64,000 nt of DNA from Vicugna vicugna (GCA_013265495.1 MU058221.1:2914001-2978000); one strand, 5' to 3'. Shown: positions 1 through 59,447, counted from the first letter of the stretch. A program made the numbers and translations. Notes: a model not told the origin generated them from the letters alone.

Positions 1-52
1 CTGAACTATTATGCTGTACACCAGAAATTGACACATCGTACCTTAAAAAAAA
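1..52 (+). mobile_element. L1 3' tail fragment (camelid-type), cut by window edge
   Basis: ttatgctgtacaccagaaattgacacat...A-tail; the same motif recurs in the other L1 tails in this window. Confidence 0.8.
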
Positions 53-365: not shown

Positions 366-1162
366 GTGGATGGAAGGACTGTAAAAGCCCCAGTATGACA
401 TGGTCTACAAAAGGCTGTGTCTGGAAGAAAAGAGGCCTTTAACTTCAAAGTCGAACTGGATGCCATTCAAGGTATAAAGTAGTTACTTAGAAACTGAAAA
501 TCCCGGGGAACACCTTATTTTCATTAGTATGACCCCCCCAAGAAAACTTCACCTTTTTATCCCTGCAGTTCAATAGAATTGTGACCACACAGTCCCCCTT
601 GTCCTATTTGAAAAAAGCAAGAGGTGAGGGGAAGGGAGGCAGGACCTTAACACGGATCCAGCTGGCCACGTTTCAGATACCCACAGTGGGCTCACTTCCG
701 CTGCAAACAACTCTTCTCTCATGATGTTACTTCTGTCTTTAAGACATTTCGTCAGTTTTGCCTCCTGCATCAGAGCCTCACCGCCCTCCCTGGCCTGCGA
801 GGTTACCCTAAGCGTCTTCCCTCCTGCCTGTCACCGTTGGATCTCAACACACATCCTCCTGAAGTCAGACCACTTCTCGTGCCATCACTTCCTTCTGCCC
901 GACCCATGCCTGTCTCCCTCCACTCAAGTCGTGCCCACACTTCGTGGTCCTGCGGACACTCCCCTTGCCCTGCTCCCAAAGAATCCCACTGCTCCCAGCC
1001 TCAGGGACACCTTCCTTTTCCCAAACTGTTACCGACGTGTATTGGTTTGCAATCAATTTAGGGGAAGGGATAGATTTTCCAAGTGCTTGGCAGCTTGCTA
1101 CACGCAATGCAATTGCACAAAACACATCTCGGCTGTTTGCAGGCAGAGAAATGAGGAGGGAC

Positions 1163-1463
1163 CACCTGCTGCAGGTCTAAGCCTTTGTTTCTTCATCCAG
1201 GAGACCATTAACCAACTCTGCGTATGGCTCTGGGCCCTGAGTGAAGGAAAGCGCCAAGAGGAGATTCCTGAGGGCCCCAGTGTCAAACATATTATGCATT
1301 TGCAATCACAGAAGAATGTATGAGAACTCTCTTCCAAGGTGCAAAACACTCGTTCTTCACCTGCCGAGAGAGAGCACCGCCTACGTATTTCTTGGGTTAG
1401 GTTTCAGATTTCCCATTGAGATGGATTCTATGGGAGATCCTAGAGGCTGAAAATAGAAAACTG
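1163..1463 (+). repeat. 301-bp inverted repeat, arm 1 (donor copy)
   Basis: Reverse complement of 3707-4007; ORF translations 1241..1450(+) and 3720..3929(-) are identical. Confidence 0.97.
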
Positions 1464-1532
1464 GGATTGTCTCCCGAGCACCTGAGGCCGAAGGGAAGGG
1501 TAACCACTTTGTGTGACTGGAGTGCAAATGAA

Positions 1533-1544
1533 GGGAAATTCCCC
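1533..1544. promoter_or_regulatory. Candidate NF-kB site GGGAAATTCCCC
   Basis: Exact match to the kB consensus GGGRNWYYCC on both strands; motif only. Confidence 0.35.
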
Positions 1545-2243
1545 TGGAGCTGTCTGGGGTGTGGGCCTGGCCTCCGCTCTGCCCTGCAGCATCTCCCAGG
1601 AGCTGCTCTGGAGAGCTGTCTTGAAATAACTTGGAAGCAGCTCCCAGTTTGGGTCAGCTCTATCGGGAAGACAGACAGGAAGAGAAACAGCCGTGGAGCT
1701 GAATGGGTTACTGAATTAGGAATTTGGAAAGGGGTCGGGGATGGGCAAGGCAGAAAAAGGGCTGTTTCTTAAAGGAGGGAGCAGAAGATCCGGAGCAGGG
1801 CTGAGGATGGTCTTTGTGCCAGGGCTGCCGGCTGCCGGCTGACTTCTTTGCTGATGGAAGGATGGCTGTCAGTAAGCCCATCTCAGGCACTGCAGATAAA
1901 GCCATGAACCACGGTGTTGCTCGCAGGCCAGGGAAGGCTTTGCTGGGGGTGAGCCAGACGGGTGGGAAGGGAAAATGACGGGAAGCCAAGAACTCTCAAA
2001 TGAGGAAGCAGCCTCAAGCCAACAAAACCAGACCTCACTCTGTAAGGGCAAAGGTGACAGGGGGATGACCAGCCACTCCACACATTATAATTCACAACTA
2101 CTGTGTCCCACGCGGGGTTTGTCAGATGCTGGGACAAATACGGTGAGTTGACGAGACCATGAGACCCCGCTCTCCCAGGAATTCATGTCTGAGGGAGGCC
2201 TGAGTAGGAAAGGATTGAGAGATTAGTCCAGAGATCCAGAGGG

Positions 2244-2272
<29 letters not shown>
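2244..2272 (+). repeat. A29 tract flanked by a 7-bp direct repeat (ccagagg)
   Basis: ccagagg(2236-2242) g A29 ccagagg(2273-2279). Confidence 0.85.
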
Positions 2273-2274
<2 letters not shown>

Positions 2275-2463
2275 AGAGGTCTGAAGAGATGCCCTGTTTG
2301 TCTCTACAACTTGATGCTGAATGCGGAATGCCTTGAGAGTAGGTAGGCACACCCAGGTGCCTTTGTTCCAAGCCCTTCTTGACTCCTTGAACCGCTGAGT
2401 TTCCTGAAATGCTTTCCGTTACCGAAAGCACTTGGGTTTGCAACGCCTGCACGGACCCTAGTG

Positions 2464-2575
2464 TTACGGGTGGGGAAACTGAGGATGCGAGAGGTTAAGG
2501 GATTTACGTCTGTTTCCACACCACGCAGAGGCCGGACGAGGAGCTGGGCTTCCTGACTCCGAGTCGAGCACACAC
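2464..2575 (-). mobile_element. MIR SINE fragment
   Basis: ttacgggtggggaaactgagg...agaggttaag...cctgactcc matches the antisense MIR core. Confidence 0.6.
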
Positions 2576-3555
2576 GCCAGGCTGTCTGAGTTCTGCGAGA
2601 CCACGGAGAGTGGGCTGAGTCCCCTTTGACTCTCCTGTCTGAGTTTCAGAGCAAAGCATGGCTGCCGTCTACTGCACTGGTCACTCAATGGCCCTCCTCC
2701 TGCGTCGGCCACTTCTTTTCCCCTTTTCCCAGGTGACTCAGACGAGCAGTCTCAGACAGGCTTTAGAATGTTGGGAGCAAACCGAGATGGACAGCTCCAA
2801 AAATCAATTACTGTTTCAGCTCCACGGAAAAGTGGCAGCACGATGGTGACAGCTGCTCAGATCTGTTCCTTCTCCCCCACCCTGGAAATAAATTCTTATC
2901 CTGGCTCGGGTCCCGTCTGCTCTTTAGCCTTCATCTCTGGGTCATCGCCTTGATACAGACGAGGGAAACAGCCGCCCTTCCGCCCAACCTCATCACCCAG
3001 AAGCCGTCAGCACATAATGATTTTCAGTTGTAACTAACCGAGTTGAGAGCATTGTTTTAATTGTTATTGAATAACTGTAAATTATGCAGGGCCACAGAGA
3101 AGACAGGAGGCAATGGGGATGGGAATTGTACTTCTGTTCAGAGGCATAAATTTAGGACTATGGCAATTGTACTGTGACTCCAAAAACAGAATTTATGGTG
3201 TTTATATATATATATACTGGGAAAACTTCTAGACTAGACTGCATTTTCTTTCTAATAGTAGGTTTAGTTTGTTCTCTATAGAAAAATGACAGGGCAATAA
3301 AAGAGGTCCTTGCTTTACGACACCAGAATATTTTAGATAAGACTCGGCACCGAAACTTCATTGGTTTTATGCTGGTAGAAACAGAGAGAAGAAATGGAAT
3401 GGTCGTGTCACAGCCCCCAACCAACTCAGTCATAGTCTGAGAAACAAAAAAGAGAAGAAACCAGGATACCATTGTGTTAGAAAAATCAACCAGCCTTTCC
3501 TTCATTCATTGTCTGCCATGTGCGAAACTCAGGGCCACATTCTTTGGGACATTCA

Positions 3556-4083
3556 TATTAGCTACTATATGTATATAGAGAGATATATATCCAGATAGAT
3601 AGATTGATAGATAGATAAAAAACAAATTTCTTCTGTGTAGCATGGGGAACTATATTCAATACCTTGTAATAAACTTTATGAAAAATAATGTGAAAATAAA
3701 TAGATGCAGTTTTCTATTTTCAGCCTCTAGGATCTCCCATAGAATCCATCTCAATGGGAAATCTGAAACCTAACCCAAGAAATACGTAGGCGGTGCTCTC
3801 TCTCGGCAGGTGAAGAACGAGTGTTTTGCACCTTGGAAGAGAGTTCTCATACATTCTTCTGTGATTGCAAATGCATAATATGTTTGACACTGGGGCCCTC
3901 AGGAATCTCCTCTTGGCGCTTTCCTTCACTCAGGGCCCAGAGCCATACGCAGAGTTGGTTAATGGTCTCCTGGATGAAGAAACAAAGGCTTAGACCTGCA
4001 GCAGGTGCATAATTAGGACATTGTGCTATATACCAGAAATTGACACATGGTAACTGACTACATTTCAATTAAAAAAAAAAAAA
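3556..4083 (+). mobile_element. L1 3' tail, interrupted by a 301-bp insertion
   Basis: aacaaatttcttctgtgtagcat...gaactatattcaat (3620-3706) and ggacattgtgctatataccagaaattgacac...poly(A) (4008-4083) align colinearly with the tail at 38200-38410. Confidence 0.9.
3707..4007 (-). repeat. 301-bp inverted repeat, arm 2 (inserted copy)
   Basis: Reverse complement of 1163-1463, sitting inside an L1 tail. Confidence 0.97.
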
Positions 4084-4841
4084 ACCCTGGTCCTGTACTG
4101 TATGTCATTTAGTTTGGAAAACAGAAGAGACGTTTTGAATCAAAGACTAGGTCATGTGGTTCAAACAAATTACATGACTCTGAAGAAGGGAAAGGCAAGG
4201 ATGAGTTGGAGCAATCCGGGAGAGTCTCTTGCACACGCTGGATGTGGAGAGAAGGTCTGAGCCTGTGGAGAGAAGCGGGGAAGGGATGGGGTCTCAGGAC
4301 ATGAGGTTGGTGCGAGATCACTGAGGTTGGAACAGTGGAAGGGACACCGAAGGGACTCCCTAGTCTGAAGCAGAGCGTCTCTGCTGGAATGTTGGTGACC
4401 GATGGCTGCCAGTCGCTGAAAGACAGAGCTGCTAAAGACTTGAGTCCTCATCCCGACTTCCCAATAGGGGTAACAGCCCCCTTTCAGGAACATAAAATAG
4501 GGCTGAAGAGGGAACCAGCGAGGTGGACTACTTCCCCACAAATCTGTCCGGCTGTCTGACTGATGACCTCTAAGGTCCTCTAACCAAGAGCCACACCTTT
4601 CCTTCCACCATAAGAAATGAGGTTTCAAATGCCAAGGAGCTGGACAGAGGGAACATTGGGATGGGCAGCCACTGAATGATAAGTGACCGATGGCCAAGGC
4701 TCTTCTGAGAAGACGGTTGGGTGAGCGGAGAGGCAAAGAGGGTGTGTGATGCCTGGAGATGACAGGGGAAGTGACACATTTTGGTGGTGTGGGTCGTGAA
4801 GAGTAAGAAAGGACACGCAAAGGGAGGCCTCCTGATGTCTC

Positions 4842-5035
4842 AGAGCAAGGCTCTGAGGTTCAGGTAGACCTGAGTTTAACTCCTGGCTGCCAACTTCTGG
4901 GGATCAGAAAGTACTCAGCTTTCAAACAAAGATGGCAAAATTTCTGTTAGATTAGAGAATTAGAGAGCATGTAAGGAAAACATTTGGTACAGTGCCTGGC
5001 CCCAACAGGCACTGAATAAATGGTAGTAATTATTA
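4842..5035 (+). mobile_element. MIR SINE
   Basis: agagcaaggctctgagg...agacctgagttt...cagtgcctggc...aataaatggtag matches the MIR head and tail. Confidence 0.65.
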
Positions 5036-5239
5036 ATCTAAAGAAAAATATAGGAACATCACAAAGGAACTTAACCAGCTTGACAATTTTGACAACATTA
5101 GCACTGATAAAAGAGGAACTGGGGCTCAGTTGAGAAATTACTGAAAGTCTCCTCTTATTCTTCACCTAATGCTTCCCAACTGGTGTGAAGTCACGTCAGG
5201 GCCTCGTACGCAGGGCTGTGAGATGCACCTGCTGTTTTT

Positions 5240-5660
5240 AATCTACCTAGAACCCATTTCCTTTTTTTTTTTTCGGTAACTGTGCCTCAGTCATCCTTCG
5301 AGAAAGCATCTCACTCTACGATTAGTTCACAGAGCTTGTGTGGAGTTGAGCCTAAGTCCCAGCAGCAGGGTGGGTTGTTGATTCAGGCATAAAAAGTCAG
5401 AATTGTCCATCCTCTGCACCCCCCCACAACTACTCTCCTACCCCCAGAAATTTAATTGTCACTCACCAATCAATCCAATCAGAGCAAGTCAAATGTCTTA
5501 CAACTACTGGGAAAAGAAGCTGTCTTTCTACGGGGCTCGCGGTGGGAACAGGCGGAAAGCTGAGCGCCGGCTACCTAATGCGAAGAACCTGCCAGAACGA
5601 AGCCACCCAGAGGACAGCAGAGACGAGAGCGACGAGAGAGGAAGGGTCCTGATGTGAGCA
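5240..5660 (+). mobile_element. Old MaLR LTR (MLT1J/K-like)
   Basis: ccaatcagag...gaagccacccagaggacagcagag...gagagag...gtcctgatg motif series. Confidence 0.45.
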
Positions 5661-5699
5661 AAGCAAATGGGCCGGGCTCATCTGAGGGCTCTGGGTATC

Positions 5700-5868
5700 A
5701 ACTTCACTCAAATCTTTCAGAAAACTCTATGAGAACGTCACCAGTCATATCTCCATTTTAGAGGAAAGTCAAACAGTGACTCACTGAGAGACTAAGTTGC
5801 TTCGAGTTACACAGCAAGGAGGTACCAGTTCTGGGATTTAATCCCAGGCCATCTGGCTTCAGAGCTTG
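5700..5868 (-). mobile_element. MIR SINE
   Basis: aactctatgag...ccattttagaggaa...ttacacagc...gggatttaatcccaggccatctggcttcagagc. Confidence 0.65.
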
Positions 5869-8800
5869 CCTCGATCCGTGCTGTGCTGTCTTTTCAAGTG
5901 ATGTTTCAGTTTCTGGGTTCCCTGTACTTTTCAGCTATGCAGCCAACACATTTGCTTTTTGTGCTAAGCCAGGAGGATTCTGCCACCGGCGCTCAAAGGA
6001 GCGCCAAGGGGTTCACTTGCACACTCAGCGCACGCCCCGCCCTCCCCAGGGTCCCAGTCCTAGCCCAGACCCTTCTTTTCAGCTGCGGAGATCACAGCCC
6101 AAACGTACAGACTTTCATTCAGTCCTCCGCATTCTGGGACGAACATGTGTTTCAATCTTATTTCCAGTCCTCCTCTCCAAAAATTTCCTCCTGGCTGCTT
6201 GTTACCGATCTCTCAAGCCTGCAGCTGAGCTCAGTACCTCCTGCAAGTCCATTGACACCTCTGATCCCATCTCGTTAGGGGAGAAGTCTAAAGCAGTATT
6301 TTACAATTTCTAGAAAAATCCATCTCTGCTTCAAAAAGTGTCGTACCCTCCTCCACTTTGTTTTTTCTCCTCTTGCCAATGGGAGTGAGTCTGCAGCCTT
6401 CTCCCCCTACCCCAGTGTTCCTTGTTAGCCTTCAGGCAGTACTGAAATATTTCAAACAGGGTTTCCTTGGAGCCATTTCCTCCTCCCTTCTCTCTTCGCC
6501 CCTGGTCCAAGGCGTTCAGCTGTGCTCCCAGCTCTGGGGGGTGGTTTGGATGCATCAAACTGAAATCTCTGGGACTGAGATTTCTTGAGTGTTCATGGCT
6601 CTCCAATTGACCGCATGGATTTGTTTGAGACTTTGTCCTGCCTCAGAGGGATGGAATCTGTTAGCTACGGACACCTGAACTGCCTTCCCACCCTGTGTGC
6701 CCTAAATTGACCCCCAAATCCTGGAAGGCTGAGCTTGTCCGCTGAGGTGCTGGTTATACCACTGCCAGGCGCTTCAGCCTCACTTGCAGATGGCTTGTCC
6801 ATTCCTTGCGGAGCCGATTCCATGATTTCCCCAAACAGATCAGCAAACATGCAAACTTCGACCACAGAACACCTTACAACTCCAGAGGATCGGACAACAG
6901 GCTGAGGAAGAAACAAATGCAACAACCCAAGAGTGTGTCATAGGGAAGACCTGGCTGTCCCGCACCCTGTTTCCGGGGAGCAACGGCTGCTGTTTCAGGT
7001 GACCGAGGAGGAGCACATTGGATCACCGCGACACCGGAATGGGACTTCTGCACAAGGCAGAGCAGAAGTCCACCGTGAACGCGACCCCCCTCCCCGAGGA
7101 TGAGCTACGGCAAGTTCCCTGCATCTTAGCAGTAGTGAGAGGCCCCCTGGGAAACTCAGTGGTGGCGAAGAGCCCAACGGTCACACCGCTGACTCTGCCC
7201 TTTGGTGGCGCCCACTGGACCACAGAGCCTCAGGTCAACAGTAGCTTGAGATGAAGACCAGAAGGCCCAGGGCTAGCTACTCGGTTCCAACTCCGGAGCC
7301 TACAAAGTGCTTGCAATTCTGGGGGAAAACGTGTAGAGTTAAGAATAGAACATATCCTCCCCCTTAGCATCCGCGGAACATAGGTCACTCATTTCTCCAG
7401 TGGGGGTCCTGTAACAGAGGGACTGCGCCTTTAGGCATTGCTTGAACAACCCTAACACACCAATGGGACTTTGTCTTGAACTCATGTCACAAGAATGGAA
7501 AGAGAACTTACGTATCTTGAATGTTTCCACTCTACCCTGAGTCATGAGTCTTAAAAAGAAGTATATATTTCTTTTCATTTCAAAGATTTCTGTTGAGCTG
7601 GTCAGTTGCATTCTGTTGACTGTGAACTAGTTAATCAAATTTTCTAGTTCCCTGGTTCCATCACCAGAAGAAAAGTGATTTGTTTCTTTTCAGGTCGCTG
7701 CGTAAATAAATGTCCAGCCTCTTTCTGGGAACATCACTGCTTCATGCCATTTGGAGCTCTTGCCCCCAGCTGCACTGCCGCTTCCTGTCCAGTGGCCTTA
7801 TCCCTTTTCCCAGGGGCTTGGCCATCTCCAGGCACAGAGCTGCCGATTCAACAGTGATGCGTGTAGTTTCTGTTTTACTTCGTGATGTGGAAGTCACAAT
7901 ACATTCCACTCTTCCTGACTGTTATTTCTTTGATCCAAATATCCTGCTGGGATCTTTTAACTGTATGTTAATTCATCTCAGATCCAAACTCCCAGGACTT
8001 AGTGACAGGGCAGCCTTTTTGTTCTCCATAGAATGGGGACCGTCACCTATCTGCACCTGTGACTTAGATAATTAAGTAACTGAATGTTCCTTTCTGAGAA
8101 CACCTTACCGAGTCTCTTGATGTCTCCCCTCCGTTCCTCCTGAGTTACAATCTAAGTTCAGCCCTAGGAAAGAACTGTAGTTGCTTGGAGAGAAACAGAG
8201 TATAATTCCTGGGCTCTTTTGGACAAGAGTTTGCCAGGTTTACAAGCCCTATAATAAAGCATGTTATTTACCCACCTCATCTGATTAGAATATAGCGAGC
8301 GAAGGGAATGAAAAACTTATATGGAAGCCTAAATGCCATCGAGTTTATGATTTCCTCCGCAGGAAGAGAGTTAATCATTGGAAGAGACTCCTACTGTCTC
8401 TAGTGTGCATTAGAACCAAGGTTAGACTTCCTTAGGTCAAGAATAACTTTGAAAAAAGCACGGGCGTCACTCTTATTTCCTCACTTTGGGAATTTAATGA
8501 AGAACATTAAAAAATATAAAACATAGACGAGTTAGCTTCACTTCCCGCCAATTTTTTTCTAGTGATAAGCAATAATTGTACAGCTTATGTACAACCGATT
8601 GTGTCCCATTTCTTCTAAACATGTGGTTTGTCTTCTCTTTTTATCATAATGGGTGACTCCAGACAATTTGCAGTGCTTTGGGAGAGGGCTCAACCAAAAC
8701 TTTGGTTTGGGTTGGTTTCAACCCAAAACTGTTTGCAACTACAAAGGAAGGAGCAACGGGCAGAGGCAGAAACAAACATGCTTAACAACAGCAGCGAAAA

Positions 8801-8959
8801 CAAAGCAAGATGTGTTCTGTGAAGTAAATGCTCTCAAGTTCAAGTCTTTCAGCGTCACCCATTTTTAAAAATCAGTGCGTTCAAATGCCCAGAGACCCTA
8901 GTCCCTCCACTCAGCACATCTTCACCTCCTGTCCTGTTTGCTCTCAGTGCGTGGAGGAA

Positions 8960-10050
8960 CACTTTCAACTTGACTTACCTTCTGTCTCGCTAATCCTCTC
9001 TTCAGCTGTATCCAGCCTGTTACCCAGTCCATCTACTGAGTTCTTAATTTAAGCTATTTTGTTTTCCAGTTGCAGAGTTAACTTCTATTCCATTCATTTT
9101 TTACAGATTCTAGTTCTTGCAAGAAAGTCTAAATGTTGGCCATCTATTATTTTTGAACATATTAGTCAAGATTAATTAAAATATGTCTCTAATAACACTA
9201 ATATCTGGGTTAACTAAGTTTCAGTTTCTGTTATTTGTTTTTTTTTCTCCCTCTTGGTCTATTTTTGGTAATTAATTTTATTGAATGTTGAATTTTATAT
9301 ATACATAAAATTCAATATATATAAATAAAAATATAAAATTTTACATATATATAAAATTGTAGTGCCTCAAGATGGTCTTAGTTTTTCTCCAGAGGGGCTT
9401 CATCCTGTCCTCTGGCAGGCAGCAGAGGGGCAGATCACCTTGCTGGAGTCAGGGACTTGAAATGCTCTGCAGTGTTTGTAAGACTTGTTACAATACTGTT
9501 TCTGCGGCATTTCTCAGGGACAGCCCTGCAGAGACACAAACTGAGAGCCTGCACTGTTACCTAGGGGTCTCCCTCTTTGCGGGCCCTGAGCCTCATTCCT
9601 GTCTCCCTGGATCTAAAAGACGGGAGGAACCTCCGCTCTGACACTCGGCCACTTTCTTCTCGGCTTCCGCAAAGCCCTGCAGGCCAGTTTCCTGAGGGGA
9701 CCCTGCGCCTCGTGTTAGGCTCGCTTCTTTGCGTCTCCCTCCCGCTGGGACCCGGATCCTTCAGTCCCGCCTGCTTTGGTGACCTTGACCATCAGTCTTC
9801 ACTTCTCAGCCCTGTGAGTTGTCCTAAAGCTCTGTTGGCTTCTCTGTGTCTCAGTAACTACTTTCTGCCTGGCTGGCCGGCCACTCTCCTCACGCCAAAA
9901 ATGAGCGAAGGCCCAGAAGAAAAAAAGCAGCCCTGTGATAACATTCCCTTCTCTCCGGGTCCTAGGCCGTCAAGTCCTGGCTGCCTCAGAGGCTCTCTGA
10001 GGCCTTTGGCCAGGTTTCTCTTAAATTTAATCTGGCTTCTATGGTTGACT
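8960..10050 (-). mobile_element. Ancient L1M 5'/ORF1 region remnant
   Basis: ctaatcctctcttcagctgtatccagcctgtt...ccatctactgagttcttaattt is typical antisense old L1 ORF1. Confidence 0.55.
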
Positions 10051-10264: not shown

Positions 10265-10395
10265 CTTTTATTTATTTTTGAGGGGAGAGGTAACTAGGTT
10301 ATCTATTTATTTATTTATAATAGAGGTAATGGAGATTGACCCAAGAGCTCGTGCACACTAAGCACGTGCTCTACCGCTGAGCCACACCCTCCCCC
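10265..10395 (-). mobile_element. vic-1-type tRNA-derived camelid SINE
   Basis: The reverse strand reads ggggagggtgtggctcagcggtagagcacgtgcttag...; 17-bp TSD ccttttgca(t/c)aattttc at 10248-10264 and 10398-10414. Confidence 0.9.
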
Positions 10396-11407
10396 ATCCT
10401 TTTGCACAATTTTCATACCTTGAAACAGGAACTTCCCTGTTGCCATTTCTCCTGAGTGGGGGATGATATTTTCTGTCTCCTTGGGTTTCCCAGCCTCACC
10501 CGTCTTTCAGTGTCTTTCATTGTGTTTTGCAGAACCTAAAATGTTAATAATGATTATATGTAAAGTGCCTTTAGGGTCAAAATAAAGTTTATCACTTCAA
10601 TATTCCTACACGTAACAAATTTCCTCGGCAGAATTTATCACAGCTTTTAATACACTATTTTGAATAGTGATAAAATTCAAAACTTAAACGACCAAGGGAT
10701 CCTTTTTCACAAAGTGTCTTGAAGGATAAGCATGGTACGGAAAAGCTTTGGGAGACATATTCTTAAACACAATCTAATATTACCAGTTTATGGACTAGGT
10801 TACCTTGAAAAGTAGCAAGGTTTCGAAATAGTCCTTAAACACATAGAGTGCCACTTCAGTTTTCAAACCTTTGAGAAGTAGGACTATTTACCACTGAGTG
10901 AATTTTTGTAGTAAATTTTTACTTTTAAATTAAATAACTCATTTATATGCATTGCTTCTCAAATAGTAAGACTTCAAGAGATGTTAGTTTCCTTTAGTTC
11001 GTAACTTCCCTTGAACCATGCAAAACCCTCTGTGAAGTAAATGATATCTGTATTTTAAATATGAATGGATTCAGGCTACAAGAAGTTAAATAACTTTTCA
11101 AGGTGTTAGAAATATTAAGTGACAGTGTTGGTATTTGACTGAATATTACCTACTTTTAAAATAAATGCATGAATAACCTGCCTCCCACAATGCCAGACTG
11201 AGGAGGACTGGAAAAGGGCAAAGGGAAAACGGTGAGGTAGGTTTGGGAAAACAGGCATTGAGAATGTCATTATTTTATATCTTAGTATGTTAGAGGTAAA
11301 AATGTGATGGCGATCAGATCTCTCAACTAGTATTTTTAGTTACGCATGAGGTAGACAATTCTGGGAAAGAGGAGTATATATCTTGATGGTAAGAATGCAT
11401 CATGATA

Positions 11408-26237: not shown

Positions 26238-26342
26238 TTTTTTATTATTATTATTGTCTTTAAAATGGAGGTGCTGGGGACTGAACCCTGGACCTCGTGC
26301 ATGCTGAGCATGTGCTCTACCACTGAGCCGTTCCCCACCCCC
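26238..26342 (-). mobile_element. vic-1-type camelid SINE
   Basis: atggaggtgctggggactgaaccctggacctcgtgcatgctgagcatgtgctctaccactgagc; TSD approximately gaatatgattttta / ggatgtgattttta. Confidence 0.9.
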
Positions 26343-27179
26343 AGGATGTGATTTTTAGATATGAGACTTTTCTAACTTTATATGTATTTCATCCCTGAGC
26401 CTATGCAGAGAATGTGGGACCACCCTGGTTTGGGGCAACTTTTGGAATTCAGTGAGTTGCCCTGTGCCTCATCAAAGATCAGGCTATTTTGTTTAATTGT
26501 TACTCAAATTCAGACCAATAATTTATTTCTCCCTCAAAGCAGAAGTTTCCTTTAGAATTATAAGGGAAACAGTGCCATTCTCATGCTAATGAGCCCGTAT
26601 GAACATAACACCCCAAAGGTGAATGGTGACTGCAAAATCGGTAAACCTCTGAATAATTCAAAGGGCTCTGTTTCAGAGCCTAAAATTTTGGGGGCGATTA
26701 TTTGCTAATATGTCTGCAGCTCTTTACAGCTTACAAAGGGCTTTCAAATACAGGATTTTATTTAAGGTTCATCACAGACATGACGATGAGGTCTGTGGTC
26801 ATTATTTTGTAAAGGAAGTCATGGCACTCAGAGCTGAAGGTGGTGACGCTGGTCTCTGATCCAGGTCTTCTGCCCCCAGTGCGTTGACTCCCCCATTTCA
26901 CGGACCACCCAACCACCTGCTGCTATGACGTACGTGCTACACAATATAGCACATGTTTCCAACATTACAGCCGCACAGGAACGCGGAGAATGTATCCGAC
27001 TGGCAGCGAAGTGCACACGATACTGAACATAAAACCCCGGACTAGGAAGTGAAAAAACAGATGCGTCACACGACCTGGCTTCCACCTTCTACTCGCTCCG
27101 TGGCCTTGGGTAGGTTGCTTAGACGTTTCCGAAGTTCACTTCTCTTTGCCAGAGACACTGACGACTCCTGGCGGGCCAC

Positions 27180-27712: not shown

Positions 27713-30019
27713 TATCTCAGAAAGAGACTAAAGTTTACAGCTTTTTCCCAAACACAAATAATTATTAGGGACTTGTTATGAAAGAACTGTTCTATGCTGT
27801 GAGCGTAGACAAACACACAGAGAAGCATTTAATTATAAACTTCAGTAAGAGCTATGAAGGAAACTAGCGTGCTAAAACACAGTGGACTGACTTAGATGGC
27901 TGGGTCAGGAGAAGCATCCGAGCAAGGGACATTTGTGTCGAGAGCCGGAGCCCGGGTTGCCGTTAGCCATGTGAAAAGAAATGGAAAGGAAACATTCCAG
28001 GCAGAGGCCACAGCACATGGGATGACCCTGAGGTGTGTTCCAAGCACGGAAGTGTGGCGTGCAAATGATTCAGGGGAGGCAGGCCAGACCGCGCTGTTCC
28101 CACTGTGGGAGCGGTCCTCATTTCATCCAGATGTTGAGAGCCAGCTCAGTCAGAGGTGTTCCCCATGCAACCACGCTGGGGCACGGCTGAATGTGACTGA
28201 ACAGGAGAAAGCTCCAAGAGATTCTGGTTTCTTTCTTTTGGTTAAGAATGTTCCCACAGTCACAGACAGGTGTGTGTGGGCAGGAAGGGGAAGGAAAAAG
28301 ATTCAAAGATAGAGATTCAGGAACTTATTTTTATAATACAAGCTCATCTCTGCTTCCTGGGCATCTACCTTTTCTAACGGTATTACACTTAGGACTCTGA
28401 CATCATAAATGAACCTGGGATCTTACCTGCAAATTCAATCCACGCTAGGCTGGTAAACATAAGATCACGCAAATTAATGTTTTAATTGAGTGGACAAAGT
28501 CCAAAACGCCTGCCACTTAAATTTTAATTATGCATGCAGAACAAAGACTGTGTTCCAAATGTGATGTTTCTTCCCCCTCAAGAAAGCAAAGCTCAAAACT
28601 AAATGATAAATTCCACATCAAGCAGTTAGAATGGACTCTAAACCATCACAGATCTTGGATATCTCTGCTTGGTGCAGGAAGAATAAAGTGAAAAAGATAC
28701 ACTGCCTCCTGATAGAGAAGAATAATCTGCTAGACAGCAATTTGCCCGAATCCGCCACCTCCTTGCTGCGTATTTATTGCGTGCCCAGCCCCACGCAGCA
28801 CACTTAAGCAGGAGACACAGAAATGTATGATGCTGTGGAACGCGGTCTTTCTGACTGTCCAGGAGCAGCCTAACCAAGAAGGCAAAGTGGCAAAACAATG
28901 CAGCATGAAAAATATCAAAACCAGCTTTACTGCCAAAAAGTTCTTGAAATTCAGAGGTAAATCCTTTATGTGTGAAAAGAAATAAGTGTGATTAGATCCT
29001 TTGAAGCTGAAAAGTAGCCGCTACAGCCACACACCGTGACAGCATCCGTTCTCTTCTTTCTTCCATCTGTGGTTTTGGGTGTAAACCCAGAAAAACCAGT
29101 CTGTGTCTTACGTATTTATGGCTCAGTGATCAGGCGAGCTGGGACGTTCGCTCAGTCCATCACAGCCCTCATCCTTGGGAAGCAGGGATGCAGACTCAGC
29201 CTCAGACCCCAAGAATTAGCGATGAGCACGTGGGAGCCACAGAGAGATGGACTCCATACTGAGGAACCCAAGATCGGAGAGGTGGAAAAAAGATTACCCG
29301 AAGCCTTTGCATGCCTTGCTTAATTTTTAAATTTTTATTTACCCGTAGCAATCCAGCTGATAAGACGGCTGCCACCCCTCGGATGATTCGGGTCGTTCAG
29401 TCAATACCTGCTTGCACTGACGCTGGTGAGAGGGACGGCCAAACACCCCGAAGGATACCCTGAGAATACCCTCTCGCCCTGAGAATCCATGACACTCACT
29501 TCTTACAAGAATCACTTCCAGTCCCAGACCTGACCGATTCCTCCAAGTCGAAACCGGTGATCATTTAGTGAGTGGAGTAAGTGAAGTGTATTAGCCGGAG
29601 TGGAGAGTTTAGAGCAAAAACTGAAAGAAAGGAAGAAAAGAAAAGAAAGGATAGATGGAGGTATGGATGGGTGGAAGGAAAGACGGAAGGAAAAACAAAG
29701 TGAGTTCAATTCCCAGCCACATGATAAAGGACACCCACGGGTTCCCCGCTCAGTGTACTCACATGGACCTAGAAACCTAGTTTATAACCATAGCAGCCCA
29801 TACAGTTACATGCCTTAAAAGCAACGTGTAATTTCAGCTGGACTGGATCCTGTCTAAAGGCAGATTGCATGTGATACTCAACTGTGTATTGGCAGTTCCT
29901 AGAGCAGTCCTGGGATTTCTGGTTAAAGAAATTTCGAGTCTCCTAAATAAACATGGCAGGAATGAGGGAGAGCTGGGTGCCGGGTCTTTGTGTCGGCTTT
30001 AATAAGAGATCACAAGGGT

Positions 30020-30136
30020 GGGGGAGGGTAACAGCTCAGCGGTAGAGCACATGCTTAGCATCCAAGAGGTCCTGGGTTCCATCCCCAGCACCTCCACTGG
30101 AAAACAAAAACAAAAACAAAAACAAACAAGAAAAAA
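30020..30136 (+). mobile_element. vic-1-type camelid SINE
   Basis: ggggagggtaacagctcagcggtagagcacatgcttagcatccaagaggtcctgggttccatccccagcacctcca with tRNA-like A/B boxes, A-rich tail and TSD containing tcacaag. Confidence 0.92.
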
Positions 30137-34899: not shown

Positions 34900-36260
34900 A
34901 AGAGACAGATAAATAGAGCAACCTCCAAAGTTCAGAAATAGGAAAAATATAGGAATTTTGTATATGATAAAGTTAGTATTTGAAAGCATATGTGGAAGAT
35001 GGATGATTAATAAAGTTAACTAGCTAGAAATATCCTTTCTTAACAGTTTATACAAAAAATAAATTCCAAGCGTGTTAAAGACTTAAATGTGAAAAATAAA
35101 ACTTTAAATACAAGAAGAAACTCCGGAAAAATTTTCTTACATTGAATGGGAAAGTTCGTTTCAATTACAGAGTGAAATAGCGGTTATGGAAGGAAAAAAA
35201 CATGATTTTGATTAGACAATTCTAAAACTACTCTACCTAACAAAAACACCAGAAAAATAAATAAAATAAAACGTTTCAATTCACATAAGAGGAAATGGAT
35301 GAACTTAACAGGTAAACGTGTTCTATGAATCAATAAGAGCTCATAACGATCACCCAAGTTAAAATGGCCAAAAGAGTTAAATCAGAGGAATGTAGACATA
35401 AAGGTCCCTTAAGAAGGTGCAAATAGACTCAAACCCATTCAAAATTAGATAAATATAAGTTAAAACTATATTATTATTATTTTTAAAGCTTTGTTTACCC
35501 TTTTAAAAATATTTTAATTTATTATTTTGTTGTTAGGTAATTAGGTTTACTTACTCTCGGAGGAGGCGCTGGGGACTGAACCCAGGACCTCATGCATGCT
35601 AGGCATGTGCTCTACCACTTGAGCTAGACCCTCCCTCCAAAATTATATTATTTTTTATTAGCAAATATTAAAATGTTTGAAAACACATTGTGTTGCTGAG
35701 TGTATGGAAGATGGGCACTTCTGTCTGTTTTCTTGGGAGTCTGAAATGGTGCTGTATTTATAGAAATGATTTGGCAGTGTCTATGAAAATTTGATGCAGA
35801 AGCAGTAATTCCACTTCTAGGAATCTGTTCCATGTTGATCCTTGCATAAATATGTGCATATATTCCTTGCAGCATTATTTGTGACAGCACAGCATAAAAG
35901 CGTTCTAAATATGAGGACTGATTAAATAAGTTGTGGAACATCCTGGAAGAGCTCGCTTTAAAAAAGAGCGAGGGAATTCATCAGACATGGATTTAGAACA
36001 ATCTTCAGAATGTATGCAAAGTGACAAACGCAAAGTACAGAAGAGTATGTTGTGTCTTGGCTAAAAAAAGGGGAAAAAATAAATACAGATGTTCACTTGT
36101 CTACATGCAGAGAACGTCTCTGCGCAAAGACATGAGAATCTGACTCCAGTGGTGGCTTCTGGAGAAGGAAACTCAGTTGCTGGGAGATTCAGTTGAAAGA
36201 CTGACTTTGTATTTTATACCTTCTAGGACCTTTGGCTATGAGATTATGTATCAGCTCAAA
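34900..36260 (+). mobile_element. Ancient L1ME ORF2-end/3' remnant
   Basis: acaaaaaataaattccaag...ttaaagacttaaatgtgaaaa; gcagtaattccacttctaggaatct; tgcagcattatttgt. Confidence 0.6.
35480..35638 (-). mobile_element. vic-1-type camelid SINE
   Basis: ggaggcgctggggactgaacccaggacctcatgcatgctaggcatgtgctctaccac; TSD aaaa(c/t)tatattatt. Confidence 0.9.
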
Positions 36261-37781
36261 CCAAAAATAAAAAATAAAAAAAAAATAGAGGATTTATTTT
36301 AAACATTTCAAATGACTGTGTGGAGATTTATCATTCTATCTGTCATGGAAGCAGGCGTCAAGGGGAAGAATAATATTTGAAGTCTAGAGGAACAAGGTAG
36401 CTGGCTAGGTAACTACCAGTTCGGAGTCGAGCCAGAAAACTGAACAAAAAGGAAGTTTAAGAGCTAAATCAAGGAATACCAACTGTCTGCTCCAGCGTCA
36501 AGCCAACCTTATTTTAGGCAGCGTACATGGCTGTCGCCAGGGTGACTCAGCCTGTCTTGGCAATTTGAAAATCATTTTAATAATCCCCTTAAACTTTAAG
36601 GCACTGAAATCAATAGCGTTTACTGTATCCGATTAATCTGTTCCCACTCACCATCTACTAGCACAGATGTTTTTCAACCGATTTTAGCAGTGGATCTTTT
36701 TTTTTTAAATAAAATATTGTGTGGCATCTTAGTACCTATATAAATAAAATGAAGTTGTTCTGCGTACTCAACGACTCTCAATTTCTAAGACCTAGTTCAA
36801 GTCTGCTTTATCTAATGAAGCTTGAGGGGATGGAGGTGGGGGAGGTGAAGAGTAGGGACCAAAGGGTTAATTACTTGCAATCAACTACACCTCCCTTACG
36901 TGTGGGGTCATGAGAGTCCATCAGCTTGTTTGACATGGGAGCATTGACATACGTAAGTCTAATCGTGCTATGACTGTTAGTCTTACCATGCAGGAATTGT
37001 GACTGACACTCTTTCAAGTTCTTTACCACAACAGAGGTGTGGAGAGGGTCTGGTCTAAATGTTCTTGCAAAATTGAATCTATGTAAATAACTGCTTATTT
37101 TGCATTCATTTTTAAACATTTTTAAATGCTTTAGAGTTTTTTTTTTCTTTTAATCTTTCTGTTTGAATTCTTGCTACTTTACATCAAGGCATTTAGTAAA
37201 CATCATGAGGTTTGGCTCAGTAGTTTCCACATTTTTTATACATAGAGTCTTTCCTGAGATCATTTTCAAAATGCACAAGCTGGTTTCTGCTTCCCACAGT
37301 GCAGGGCAGTGGGCGCTCTGAAGAGCGCTCTTGATTACAGCAAACTATGAAGGTTGAGAAAGTATTTAAACAATGCGTGTAAATTCATCACTGAGCCGAC
37401 AAGGAAGCAAGACTTTTGCAGAGGTCAAGGTGAAGGGAAAGGAAGGACTCGAGGAAGTGAGCTCCCAGACTGGCTTTCCCCTTGTCACCCTGAGCTTCCA
37501 TTTCCGTAGCTGCATAAAGTACCAGAGCCTGGAGGTAACTAACACTGATGCAAACCTAGTAGGAAACAGTTGCGAAAGCCCAGCATAAGGCAGAAGAGTA
37601 ATACAACTGCAAATATTAAGTGGACTGTAAGAAAATTAGCTTTACGTAGACTTGCAGAGTTGGAGGAGGGGGTAGAAGAAGTTGCAACATCCCTTACATA
37701 GCTTTATGGTCTGAAAATATGGTACCAACGAATGTTGTCCAAAAATGGTCAGAAGATAACTTATTTGAAAGTGATCTAGGC

Positions 37782-38300
37782 AGATGCACCCCAGTGTTCA
37801 AAGCAGCACTGTTACAACAGCCAAGACATGGACGCAACCTAAATGCCCATCGACAGATGACTGGATAAAGAGGCTGTGGTCTATTTATACAATGGAATAC
37901 TACTCAGCCATAAAAAAGAATGAAGTAATGCCATTTGCAGCAACATGGATGTTCCTGGAGATCGTCATTCTAAGTGAAGTAAGCCAGAAAGAGAAAGAAA
38001 AATACCGTATGATATCACTTATATGTAGAATCTAAAAAAAAAAAAGAAAGAAAGAAAAGAAAAAAGATAACACTAATGAACTCATCTACAAAAGAAAGAT
38101 ATTTGTAGACATCATAAACAATCTTCTGTGTGGAGAGGAATAAATTTGGGAGTTAGTTTGAGATTTGCAAATTTTTACCACTTATATATAAAAATAGATA
38201 AAAAAACAAATTTCTTCTGTGTAGCATAGGGAACTATAGTCAATATCTTGTAATAACCTTTAATAAAAAGAATATAAAAATGAACATATGTATAAAAATG

Positions 38301-38341
<41 letters not shown>

Positions 38342-38430
38342 CTGGGACATTATGCTGTATACCAGAAACTGACACATTGTAATGGACTATCCTTCAATAA
38401 AAAAATAAATAAGTTAAAAAAATAAAGAAA
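37782..38430 (+). mobile_element. Lineage-specific L1, ORF2 C-terminus plus 3' UTR
   Basis: ORF 37784..38035 reads QPKCPSTDDWIK...MEYYSAIKKNEVMPFAATWM (L1 ORF2 C-terminus); perfect 15-bp TSD gaaagtgatctaggc at 37767-37781 and 38431-38445. Confidence 0.95.
38303..38340. repeat. (CA)19 microsatellite within the L1 tail
   Basis: Directly visible. Confidence 0.95.
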
Positions 38431-39499: not shown

Positions 39500-41340
39500 T
39501 CAGATGCACACTAATCTCACTGTGGTCCCACAGAAGCATCCTCTTCTTCCTGTGTTTTCTAAGTGGTACCAAAATCTACACTGTCTTCCAAGCAGGAAAT
39601 CTGGGTTTCATACTGAACACTTGTCTCTCTCGACTTCATCTGAATCAGTTCTACCTCTTAAAAAATGCCTCTAGTCAGAAGCATAACCTTAGCTCCTGAA
39701 GCACCTGGACAGCTTTTGAAACTGCTCATGCTGCAGTGTAAACTTCGATTTAAACAGTCTAGGGCAAAGGTGTGTGTGCGCACGGGGCACCAGGATAGTT
39801 CAAATTTCCTTGGGTGCTTTAATGTGAAGCCAAAGTGGAGAACCAGGCACTGCCCCATCTGTCTGTTCACCTCCGTTATCACCTCGCATCAGGCCCCCAC
39901 AATTTCTCCCATGGATTACTAAAATCATTTTTAAGACCAGTTAGGCTCCTGGTCTCCAGGATGACTCACTTCAAATTCATTCTTTGCACAGCTGCATCGT
40001 AACTGTAGACACACAACCTTTCTCTGTTTATTAAAAAAAAAATCTCTCCACGACAGCCCATTAGTACAGGGTAAAGTCTAAGCTCTTATAACAAGTCCTG
40101 CGGCATCTTCTACCATATGCTCCTGTCTGACGATGCCTGGCTTCATCTCCTGTCTCTTGGCTTTTCAGTATAATCTAGCATCATTGAAAATGTTACTGTC
40201 TTATTTTTTTATTGACATATAGTCAGTTCCAATGTGTCAGTTTCTGGTGAACATAATGTTTCAGTCATCCCTATATATACATGTATTTGTTTCCATATGC
40301 TTTTTCATTATAAGTTACTACAAGATATTGAATATAGTTCCCTGTGCTATATTGAAGAAATTTATTTTTTATCTATTTTATACACAGTAGTTAGTATTCT
40401 CGAACTCCCAATTTATTCCTTCCCACCTTCTTTCCCCCTGGTAACCATAAGTTTGTTTTCTATGTCTGTGAGCCTCTTTCTGTTTCATAGATAAGTTCAT
40501 TAGTGTTTTCTTTTTTCTTCTCTTTTCTTTCTTTTTTTTTTAGATTCCAAACTGAGTGATATCATATGGCATTTTTCTTTCTCTTTCTGGCTTAATCCAC
40601 TTAGAATGACAATCTCCAGTTCCATCCATACTGCTGCAAATGGCATTGTTTTATTCTTTTTTATTGCAAAGTAGTATTCCACTGTATAAACAGACCACAG
40701 CTTCTTTGTCCAGTCATCTGTCAATGGACATTTAGGTTGTTTCCATGTCTTGGCTATTGTAAATAGTGCTGCTATGAAGATTGGGGTGCATGTATCTTTT
40801 TGAATTGAGGTTCCCTCTGGATATATGCTCAGGATTGGGGTCACTGGATCATACAGTAAATCAATTTTAAGTTTTTTGAGGAATCTATATACTATTTTCC
40901 TTAACAGCTACATTCCATACCAACAAGATTTCCACTGACAGTGTAGGAGGGTTCCTTTTTCTGTACACCTTCTCCAGCAGTTTTTGCTGTGGGAAAATGT
41001 TACTGTCTTATACACACATGGTTGTGCTTCTCTTCTGTCGAGACTGACTTTTTCCATCTCGTCAGCTGGCTAGCAATCCAGTTAGATTTATGTACTAGTT
41101 TATAAGACAGTCAGATGCTCTGTCTCCAGGATGCCGTCTTGGACTCTCCGAGGCAGGGTGCTGGTCTTCCTTACGCTCTCGTAACGTCCAAACTTACCTT
41201 CCTTATTCCCTGTAGCGTGTCTTATCATGTCCCTCATGTTTTCACCTCTTGCAGTAGGCTCTAAGTTCCTTGAGTCCACTCAGGGTTTGGTTCAACCCTT
41301 GACATAGTTTGGACTGATGGGAAGCACACTAATACATAAA
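39500..41340 (+). mobile_element. L2 remnant hosting a younger L1 (40205-40992) and a MER5-like piece (about 39660-39850)
   Basis: ccaagcaggaaatctgggt...cctggtctccagg...ggtaaagtctaagctctt...gtaggctctaagttccttgag motifs. Confidence 0.5.
40205..40992 (-). mobile_element. Lineage-specific L1, ORF2 C-terminus plus 3' UTR
   Basis: ORF 40500..40844(-) reads KDTCTPIFIAALFTIAKTWKQPKCP; perfect 19-bp TSD gaaaatgttactgtcttat at 40186-40204 and 40993-41011. Confidence 0.95.
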
Positions 41341-48560: not shown

Positions 48561-50378
48561 CTTTTCATCAAAAAAAGCCTAGGACCTGACGTCTTCACAG
48601 GTGAATTCTACCAAGCACGTAAAGAATTGGTACCAGCCCTTCTCAAATTCTTCTAAAAGTCTAAAGAGAAGGGAACACTCTGCTCAAACTCATTTTATGA
48701 GGCCAGCATTACTGTCATACCAAGTCAGAAAGGGACACTACAAGAAAAGAAGATTCAGGCCAATATCCCTAATGAACACAGATGCAAAAATCTTGAACAA
48801 ATAGTAGCAAATAAAATTCAACACCACTTTAAAAGGGTTACATAACACAGTCAAGTGGGACATCTCTGGGATGCACACGCAAGGCAATAAATATGATGCA
48901 GCACATTGACAAATGAATGATAAAATTATATGATCATCTCAACTAGTGTAGAAAAAAGAGTTTGACAAAATTCAGCACTACTTCGTGATAAAAACTCTCA
49001 ACAATTAACTATAGAAAGATGTTCCCCAACACAATAAAGACCACATGTGATAAATCCACAACTAACATCAGACTCAATGGTGAAAAGGGGAAAGTTTTTC
49101 CCTGAAGATCACATAGAACACAAGCATGCTCACTCTCTCTGTTTCTAATCACTATAATACTGGAAGCCTGGCCAGAGCAATTAGCCAAGAAGAAACAACA
49201 AGACATCCAAATTAGAAAGGAAGACGTCAAATTGTCCGTTTGCAGATGGTATGATCTCGTATACAGAAAATCCTAATGACTTCACCCCCCCAAAAAAAAA
49301 CTATTAGAAATAAGAAATGAATTGTAAAGCTGTAGGATACGAAATTAACGTACAAAAATCAGTTGCCTTTCTATACATTAGCACAGATTATCCCCCCCAA
49401 CCCCCCCAGAAAAAGCAGTCCCATCTACAATAGCATTAACAAAAATAATGTTTTGGGATAAGTTTATCAAGGAGATGAAAGCTGTACACTTAAAACTGTA
49501 AATCTGATGAAAGAAGTTGAAGACAAATAAATGGAAAGGTATCCCGTGTTCATGGATTAGAAGAAGTCATATTAAAATTTCCATCCTACCGAAGGAACTG
49601 AATAGACCTTTTTTTCCAAAGAAGACATACTAATGGCCAACGGGTCCATGGAAAAGTGCTCAGTATTACTAATTATTAGGGAAGTGCAAATCAAAACCAC
49701 AATGAGATGCCACCTTATGCCTGTAAGAATGGCTATCATCAGGACGACAACAGCTAGCAAGCGTTGGCAAGGATATAGAGAAAAGGTGGGGATGTCAACG
49801 GACACAGCCATGATGGAATACGGTATGAAAGTTCCACAAGAAATTAAAACTAGAACTGCCAGATGATTGAGCAATCCTACTATTGGATACACACCCAAAG
49901 GAAGTGAAATAGGATCTCAAAGAGATGCCTTCACTCTGATGTTCACTGCAGCATTATTCACAGTAGCCAAGACATGGAGACAGCCCAGGTTTCCCTTGAT
50001 GGGTACATGAGTAAGGGACATTTATTTCTATAGAATTATTATATTATTTAGCCATGAGAAAGAAGGGAGTCTTGCCTTCTATGAGAGTATGTGTCAGTAT
50101 GGAGAACAGTATACTAAGTAAGGCAGACAAAGACAAATACTGCACAATATCCCATTTAAGTAGTATCTAAATAAAAATCAAACACATAGTAACAGAGGAT
50201 AGAATAATGGTCACCAGGGACTGGGATGGGGAAGATGGGGAGATGTTGGTCAAAGGAAACAAAGCTGAAGTTATGTAGGTTGAAGTCTGGAGAGCTAATG
50301 GATTGGCATAATGACTACACTTAATAATATTGTATTATTACACTGGAAGTATGTGGAGAGTGATTTCAGATGCACCTG

Positions 50379-54640: not shown

Positions 54641-55947
54641 ATAAAATTTTCATGATCAACATTTAAAAAAAAGTATTATTTGGCTTTTGCATGAAGCTTT
54701 TGCAAATTATAAATTAGTTACAAGCCTGACCTATACAAAGGTTCATGTAAATATTTGTACCAAAATTATCATCATAGTTGGAATTATTGTTTCTATCATA
54801 ATTTCTTGGATTACTTGGAGTTTGGTCTTAACCCAGATCTTGTTTTCATGGTTTATTTTTTAACGTTCCTGACCAACTATTTAACCAATAGATTATTTTC
54901 CGTAGATAGAAACTTACCTATAGAGAAAGGCGTGTCTTTAATAAAAGGGACAACTGTGGAAAATTCACGTATAAAGAGCAAATTAAAAATCATTACAAAC
55001 AAAACAAACAATTGAGAGATAGTTGATTATAATGGAAATTTGACTTGTAAAAATGTGAATCCCCGAAACCAGGACATGTTGGAGGCTTTTGGTTGGAATT
55101 TTAATCTTTGATTAATCCTAATTGATTACGAATGGCATCGAAAGGAAGTGAAATTGATTCTAAATGAAATAATGATTAATGTAATCTTAATCTGCTTATC
55201 TAATTAGAGCCAAACTCTTAATATTTGGTAATAGTTTTAAAGTTTCTGGGACATTGTCCAGTGTTGATCTGTTCATTAGCTGATAGATAAACTGATAGAT
55301 AGAAACTAAAATCTTTATTCTCCACTGGAGTCGTGCTCGATGGAGGGCAACAAACAAAATTCCTGACTGCTGAGATGTTGGGATGAGACTAAATATGCAC
55401 CAGAGGGAGGTCTGGCACCTGTGGGTTTAGCTCCCGGCAAAAAGTATTTCATATGCTCGGCCCATACGTGCTTGCTGGCTTGGGTGCATAAGACTTAACA
55501 CCCTCATAGCACCCTTGATGGCAACTTCTTTAATGACTGGTGTGGCACATCCATTGTTGGAGTTAGCCATAACCCGGTTCATTTTTCCTTTTCCTTTTCT
55601 GGATTCTGAACATGCTGAGAAGAGCAAAGAGTAAAACAGCTAAGATATTAAGATCAGTTTTACTCATGAAAAAGTATAAGGAAGAAGCATCTTGGTGTGA
55701 AAATCGTATGGATCATTTAATTGAACCCCAGGAAAAGTAGATTTTTCAAAGGACACAAAGGCTCCCAAAGACCACTGATGAGACTGGCCCTGAAGAAGAA
55801 GCCAGAAAGATTCCCTTTCTGAGGTTAACTCCTCCCAGTAAGAAGAAAGACTGAACTTCAGTAAGCATGCCAAATCATATTCGCCAACCTTTCCAGTCAG
55901 AAATATCTTCCACCTCCCCAAAGGTGAAGTGACTAAATGAACAGAGG

Positions 55948-56900
55948 TATATTTCAAAGAGCTCATACAACTCAATATCAAAAAGACAAACAACCAAAAC
56001 AAAAAATGGGCCAAAGATCTAAACAGATATTTCTCCAAAGAAGACATACAGATGGCCAATAGGCACATGAAGGTATGCTCAACCTTGCTAATTATTAGAG
56101 AAATGCAAATCAAAGTTATAATGAGATATCACTTCAAACCAGTCAGAATGGCCACCATCAAAAAGTCTACAAATAATAAATGCTGGAGAATGTGTAAAAG
56201 AAAGGGAACCCTCCTACACTGTTGGTGAGAATGTAATTTGGTGCAACTATGAAAACCACATGGAGGTTCCTCAAAAAACTAAAAATAGATGTACCATATG
56301 ATTCAGCCATCCCACCCCTAGGCATATATCCACAAAAGATAAAAACTCTAACTCAAAAAGATACATGTGCTCTGATGTTCATAGCAGCACTGTTTACAGT
56401 AGCCACAACATGGACACAACCTAAATGTCCATCAAGAGATGAATGGATAAAGAAGACGTGGTGTATATATAAACAATGGAATATTATTCAGCCATAAAAA
56501 ATGAAATAATGCCATTTGCAGTAGCATGGATGGAGCTAGAGATTATCATACTAAATGAAGTAAGTCAGACAGAGAAAGACAAGTATATTTTATCACTTAT
56601 ACATAGAACCTAAAAAACAGTACAAATGAACTTACAGAAACAAACTCAGACATAGACAACAAACTTATGGTTACCAAAGGGGAGGGGGAGATATAGTTAG
56701 GAGGATGGGATTAACAGATACATACCACCATATACAAAATAGATAAACAACAAGGATTTACTGTACAGCAGAGGGAACTACACACAACATTATTAATACC
56801 TATAATGAAAAAGAATCAAAAGAAAAGAATAACCTAATCACTTTGCTGCACAACTGAAACTAATACAATATTGTAAATCAACTATACTTCAGTTAAACAA
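55948..56900 (+). mobile_element. L1 ORF2 C-terminus plus 3' UTR (artiodactyl-type)
   Basis: [24 protein letters not shown]...QPKCPSRDEWIKK in ORF 56249..56497; ends ttgtaaatcaactatacttca. Confidence 0.92.
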
Positions 56901-59184: not shown

Positions 59185-59447
59185 GAGGGGGAAAGGAGTG
59201 GGAAGAATAAATTGGGAGTTTGAGATTTGCAGATACTGACTATTATATATAAAACTGATAAATAACAAGTTTCTACTGTATAGCACAGCAAACTATATTC
59301 AATTGTTTTATAGTAACATAAAATGAAAAAGAATCTGAAAAGGAATATATGCATGTGTATGTATGACTGAAACATGATGCTGTACACTGGAAATTGACAC
59401 AACACTGTAAACTGACTATCCTTCAATAAAAAAGAATGCAAAAAAAA
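59185..59447 (+). mobile_element. L1 3' tail (5'-truncated)
   Basis: gggggaaaggagtgggaagaataaattgggagtttgagatttgcagatactg...cttcaataaaaa. Confidence 0.9.

Follow-up and report, generated by a model that had tools for sequence, protein, structure and literature searches.

The window, by which we mean the whole 64,000-nt stretch of vicuna DNA that was analysed, contains a 301-nt segment (1163-1463) and, inside an older LINE-1 (L1) 3' tail, its reversed copy (3707-4007). Read from one assembly, this arrangement is quite probably the product of one event, a young germline inverted duplication (non-tandem and on the opposite strand) made by replicative template switching. The geometry behind this reading is simple: the segment stands reversed within the older tail, with 2-nt microhomologies at its ends and without the marks of TPRT or of a transposon.

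The two arms and the host L1 tail

The arms, i.e., the donor or source copy (1163-1463, + strand; 47% GC, six CpG) and the inserted copy (3707-4007, - strand), are both 301 nt long and are separated by a spacer of 2,243 nt (1464-3706). In a direct comparison, they are exact reverse complements (0/301 mismatches), and the match ends sharply, with 0 bases of further extension either inwards or outwards. The perfect 301-bp inverted duplication reported in an initial annotation of this DNA is thus borne out by exact alignment, with no longer match. The arms are the sole exact repeat of at least 40 nt, in either orientation, in the 64,000 nt of the window, which contains 0 ambiguous bases (N). A word-7 BLAST search of the arm against the window returned the two copies and one 13-nt chance match; it revealed no third, older copy of the arm in these 64 kb. 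The donor site itself (1163-1463) shows no target duplication, no poly(A) signal, and no terminal inverted repeat (TIR) beyond 2 nt. The window has no homologue spanning the ends of this copy, and we regard it as the native source by parsimony.

The inserted copy is embedded in a LINE-1 3' tail on the + strand. The 5' part of the tail lies at 3556-3706 and can be aligned to its siblings from ~3592-3611 on, and its 3' part lies at 4008-4084, including a 14-nt poly(A) (4071-4084). This host repeat has about a dozen dispersed siblings in the window. The left half is 86.6% identical to 38194-38290 over 97 nt (host positions 3611-3706) and 81.4% identical to 40376-40280. The right half is 82.4% identical to 38345-38412 over 68 nt (4016-4083) and 85.4% identical to 40248-40201 over 48 nt (4032-4079). 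The identities of the remaining sibling matches of the two halves range between 71.9% and 86.1%. Both halves thus match a common set of siblings in the same order and on a single strand, i.e., they are collinear. Two of the sibling tails are immediately preceded by reading frames with a match to the C-terminus of the human LINE-1 ORF2p, one at 37775-38032 (+ strand, E-value 2e-25) and the other at 40503-40907 (- strand, E-value 2e-36 in a PDB search). This identifies the host as an L1 3' tail, and the continuity of that tail identifies 3707-4007 as the insert. Because the two halves are collinear on one strand, the spacer must be in its ancestral orientation relative to 4008 onwards. Hence, the splitting of a diverged L1 3' tail, which had also been claimed, is confirmed by the collinearity of its halves with the same siblings and by the ORF2p frames that adjoin these.

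After in silico removal of the insert, the host tail can be aligned with its siblings over its whole length. The empty site proposed earlier is recovered to this extent, but close to the junction, the rejoined tail lacks ~10 nt that most siblings have, a shortfall that is shared by the sibling at 33575. TGCA is also present at the corresponding position of the copy at 44995, in support of a clean join of the putative empty site. A small loss (~10 nt) may also have occurred at the insertion, and this would weaken the microhomology reading given below. We found no TSD of at least 7 nt for the host L1 within 3401-3600. In the sibling tail that is closest to the host, an (AC)19.5 run (38302-38340) occupies the same internal position as the insert does in the host. 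The middle of this type of L1 tail seems to be mutation-prone.

The insertion is young relative to its host, with a loose bound on its age, and it may be polymorphic or fixed. The divergence between the host and its nearest sibling is 13-18%. With assumed substitution rates of 2.2-1.0e-9 per site per year, 0 differences in 301 nt correspond to a 95% upper bound of ~2.3-5 My. With a divergence of 0.4%, arms of this length would still be identical in 30% of cases, and with 1% in 5% of cases; 0.4-1% is the most that the word shares of the sequencing runs (see below) would imply. The insert was previously described as recent. This holds when its 0/301 differences are set against the divergence of the host, whereas its absolute age is constrained only to less than the above bound.

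Junctions and donor ends

Both junctions read TGCA. At the left one (3705-3708), CA is common to the donor and the host, and at the right one (4006-4009), TG is common to both, which agrees with the 2-bp microhomology noted on each side in the initial annotation. Alternatively, the insert may be taken to comprise a core of 297 nt and a duplication of 4 nt instead of 301 nt with two 2-nt microhomologies. To put this in perspective, we kept the host site fixed and took random 301-nt donors: microhomology of at least 2 nt at both ends was present in 204 of 7,050 local donors and in 1,554 of 62,050 donors across the window (~2.5-3% by chance). The double microhomology is therefore suggestive rather than strong when measured against chance.

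The marks of L1 TPRT or of a class 1 TSIP would be a TSD of at least 5 nt, a poly(A) tail with its signal, and a TTTT/A target. At the insert, the longest duplication is 4 nt and the site is not TTTT/A, while the insert contains neither AATAAA nor ATTAAA and has a longest A run of 3-4. These observations uphold two earlier claims, namely the absence of a poly(A) tail and of a long TSD, and an origin other than L1 TPRT. The terminal inverted repeats of the 301-nt unit are only 2 nt long, and the flanks hold no target duplication outside 1163-4007. A DNA transposon or MITE is at odds with the 2-nt TIR and with the absence of a TSD at the donor site. Two other readings of these ends were rejected: the reading of TG...CA as an LTR fails because the donor flanks are without these bases, and a restriction-ligation chimera at TGCA fails because neither donor end is in TGCA.

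The junction reading of the initial annotation captured the microhomologies but overlooked two features of the donor ends. One is a direct, in-register match between the host end (3691-3706, + strand) and the donor end (1448-1463, + strand), with 12 of 16 positions identical. It includes an unbroken 8-nt match, TGAAAATA (3691-3698 and 1448-1455). In the inserted product, the left junction thereby becomes the centre of an imperfect palindrome (3691-3722), with a predicted folding energy of -3.2 kcal/mol. Among random donors, scored by the best of eight end/orientation comparisons each, an in-register run of at least 8 was found in 7 of 7,050 local donors and 240 of 62,050 donors across the window, and an in-register match of at least 12/16 in 7 of 7,050 and 95 of 62,050, respectively (0.1-0.4%). 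The TG within the 12/16 match overlaps the junction microhomology, and the two are thus not independent. The other seven of the eight end pairs have at most 7/16 in-register matches, and their local alignments score at most 6.5, compared with 8 for this pair.

The second feature is a 6-bp perfect inverted repeat (1164-1176) situated one base inside the other donor end and copied to 3994-4006. It folds as a 5-bp stem with a 3-nt loop (-2.8 kcal/mol), and a hairpin arm of at least 6 within 3 nt of the boundary occurs at 0.9% of 9,000 positions. Because the direct match and the hairpin were both noticed before testing, the probabilities given for them are flattered, perhaps 5- to 10-fold. Together, the two features favour a biochemical origin of the insertion and suggest how the donor was chosen.

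A putative mechanism and its relation to known events

In the route that we infer, a growing 3' end would have stalled or broken at the TGCA that lies midway along the L1 tail, where the sequence is AT-rich. This end would then have primed via CA on the top strand at 1462-1463, with either its own nascent strand or the lagging-strand template serving as the template, and would have copied backwards to 1163. Less securely, it would then have been released just past the small hairpin and have re-primed on the original template through TG. Such re-priming would explain why TGCA is present twice. The event is of type 3-2-1-4 in the notation of PMC7954356, or 3-2-4-1 if the microhomologies are used. 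A mirror route that starts from the right-hand end yields an identical product and is indistinguishable from this one. A double-strand break is not required, because a template switch at a fork has the same outcome. Hence, of the earlier proposal that a break was patched from the opposite strand, the template 2.2 kb away is retained but the necessity of a break is not. In a possible but less favoured variant, the host end is copied by snap-back and then primes on the donor through 8 nt. The insert would then be expected to begin with 8 nt of host type, but these are donor-type at 4/4 of the positions that differ from the host, and the variant would therefore require an extra correction step.

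A more speculative step concerns the choice of the donor end. The direct 12/16 match could let the host end pair briefly, and in register, with the donor duplex, after which its unpaired terminal CA would switch to the displaced strand; this would account for the end that was chosen. Since a direct match is unable to prime an inverted copy, this pairing requires an extra strand switch. We put forward only as a tentative proposal, with the chances against it, that the donor was picked by a short direct repeat, the 3' end invading via the 16-nt match and its last bases making a U-turn onto the displaced strand. It is a similarly doubtful suggestion that this invasion and U-turn would give an inverted rather than a tandem copy. 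Such a rule for the donor is not stated in the titles and abstract openings returned by our full-text searches of the open-access literature.

We compared the event with published classes on the basis of passages from each source. In the passages on human inversions from the 1000 Genomes SV sets, inverted duplications account for 54% of 229 validated sites, are nearly all shorter than 1 kb, lie no more than 5 kb from the other copy, and are not typically linked to retrotransposition (Sudmant 2015, PMC4617611). They are also the commonest class in PMC12350158 (277/733, median 284 bp), where most have 1-15 bp of microhomology and a replicative origin is suggested. In one human genome, Table 2 of PMC5829575 gives 21 opposite-strand non-tandem duplications and six more with a deletion. 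The vicuna insert resembles these events in length (301 nt, i.e., <1 kb and close to the median of 284), in its inverted orientation, and in its distance from the other copy (2,243 nt, within 5 kb). The source is kept and the copy is inserted into an otherwise continuous L1, with the proviso of the ~10 nt shortfall, whose age is uncertain. Each junction has 2 nt of microhomology, without long homology, as judged against a reconstructed empty site, and retrotransposition marks are absent. The camelid case differs from these human sites in that it is known from one assembly and has no allele frequency, whereas the human ones were validated. In the passages compared, the accounts of human inverted duplications mention no direct microhomeology by which the host end would match the donor end in register.

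In the passages of these population studies (PMC4617611, PMC12350158), inverted duplications are the commonest inversion-type class, which makes the insertion an ordinary event. At 21-277 events per 2-Gb genome, a range for which the middle value of 100 is a guess, the chance of at least one event in 89 windows like this one is 6-55%. Finding one inverted duplication is therefore unsurprising.

Events of the same signature have been described at shorter range. In the passages compared, MMB-TI is reported among germline variants (PMC8421209), and 3-2-1-4 is one of the two majority patterns that give a single inverted repeat (PMC7954356). These events share with ours an insertion that is near to and inverted relative to its template, flanks with microhomology, and a single inverted repeat. 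Unlike ours, with a template 2.2 kb away and 301 nt long, those covered by the surveys have templates within ~100 nt. Distance also matters for the mechanisms initially suggested, which were template switching or synthesis-dependent end joining. The local, inverted template fits this proposal in general, but SD-MMEJ (of the polymerase theta type) uses, according to the passages of PMC5728401, template repeats within ~30 nt of the break. A 301-nt copy of a template located 2,243-2,544 nt from the break does not fit this distance, and we rejected SD-MMEJ. Finally, the passages of PMC6902434 report microhomeology, in the priming orientation, at about a third of replicative join-points. The vicuna match (75% over 16 nt, for a threshold of 70% and 5 nt) is likewise placed at a join-point with microhomology. 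In the model of that study, the primer anneals through the imperfect match in the same orientation as the junction, whereas the vicuna match is direct and cannot prime an inverted copy.

Alternative explanations and wider meaning

The second arm might be an assembly or library artefact, in which gap-closing, polishing, or a chimeric read pasted nearby sequence, reversed, into an AT-rich spot of the L1. We consider this unlikely, even if the perfect identity of the arms would be expected from it and 301 nt is a common short-read length. The (AC)19.5 run that a sibling carries at the corresponding place also makes a microsatellite gap conceivable in the host. However, the sequence resumes at the same L1 position that it left and overlaps by only 2 nt, and overlap or k-mer assemblers do not make out-and-back joins with overlaps this short. 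The direct 12/16 match and the hairpin are located exactly at the ends, where assembly software could make no use of them, and the window has neither N nor a second perfect duplicate. We also searched sequencing runs for words of the region. Among the 24 runs listed, 19 hold 0.73-0.88 of 841 words sampled from 500-9000; the region-bearing runs belong to seven studies and three closely related organism labels. The region 500-9000 is thus present in closely related animals. The share of words reaches at most 0.88 in these 19 runs, and none of the runs listed resembles the assembled animal, which would be compatible with an artefact, but the junction words amount to 60 of the 8,471 (0.7%) of the query, and the share of 0.88 therefore carries no information on the junctions. 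Metagenome contigs, a collection that need not contain host DNA, returned 0 matches to a unique 22-nt word from the flank.

We find the other explanations much less credible. A mobile or dispersed element (MITE-like or multicopy), of which both copies in the window would be insertions, is very improbable: the unit does begin with CA and end with TG, as do the ends of many DDE transposons, but its TIR is only 2 nt, and the copy at 1163-1463 has no exact target duplication and no poly(A) or signal. There are only two copies in the 64-kb window, no look-alike of the 301-nt unit among the other DNA windows surveyed, and no Rfam match (0) within the 900-1800 region around the donor. Little more can be said for an RNA-templated patch (a class 2 TSIP or endonuclease-independent L1 repair), in which cDNA of a local transcript would have filled a break in the L1 tail, and we judge it just as implausible. 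In the passages of PMC5110952, class 2 TSIPs lack a TSD of at least 5 nt and a poly(A), and have microhomology at their junctions, as the vicuna insert does. They are also defined there by distant donors, whereas the vicuna donor is local (2.2 kb away) and inverted. The insert bears no splice or poly(A) mark, no gene was identified, and none of 30 hand-picked ORFs, 25 of them taken from 129 ORFs, matches Pfam. This last blank is weak, because two frames that match L1 ORF2p were among the 30. Finally, the arm-spacer-inverted arm geometry fits in outline two further scenarios, namely an inversion of the 2.2-kb spacer whose staggered breaks left the arms as scars, and a 2.8-kb element with the arms as its terminal repeats. 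Both are ruled out by the L1 tail, which continues, collinear and on one strand, from the spacer (to 3706) past the second arm (from 4008); there is also no target duplication outside 1163-4007. We give them almost no weight.

The inverted duplication is most likely a mutation scar without function. In principle, a perfect 301-bp inverted repeat could flip the 2.2-kb spacer, and it could yield double-stranded RNA if the region is transcribed. If the insertion is real and polymorphic, it could readily be typed by PCR as a marker of camelid lineages. Taken singly, the event is of little consequence: mammalian genomes commonly contain small local inverted duplications, and this one occupies an old repeat in whose vicinity no gene was identified. 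Its wider value lies in the anatomy of the junctions, since a direct in-register microhomeology that proved recurrent would reveal how templates are selected. The signature of an invasion followed by a U-turn would be an imperfect palindrome centred on one junction even though the template is kilobases away. If general, this would provide a testable rule of donor selection for a class of small inversion-type variants that is both the most frequent and the least well explained.

The rest of the window contains a few other features. Within the spacer, 2236-2279 comprises a 29-A run (2244-2272) and one G between 7-nt direct repeats (2236-2242 and 2273-2279), and it resembles a recent retroposition insert that consists of poly(A) only and is bounded by its target duplication. 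The spacer also has a 27-nt inverted pair (1691-1717 and 2801-2827) with 78% complementarity, which is probably due to chance. The start of the window (8-52) is the end of another L1 tail, of which 8-43 is 86% identical to 4020-4055. Further remnants of the C-terminal part of L1 ORF2 were recognised, by eye and by BLAST comparison with the two ORF2p-matching regions above, at 49606-49863, 55941-56225, and 56237-56494. The frames at 58828-59220 and 28734-28982 are exon-like by eye and have no Pfam match. Four related short repeats (10323-10404, 26239-26343, 30011-30122, and 35562-35635; 78-90% identity) resemble a tRNA-derived SINE, perhaps the camelid SINE named Vic-1.
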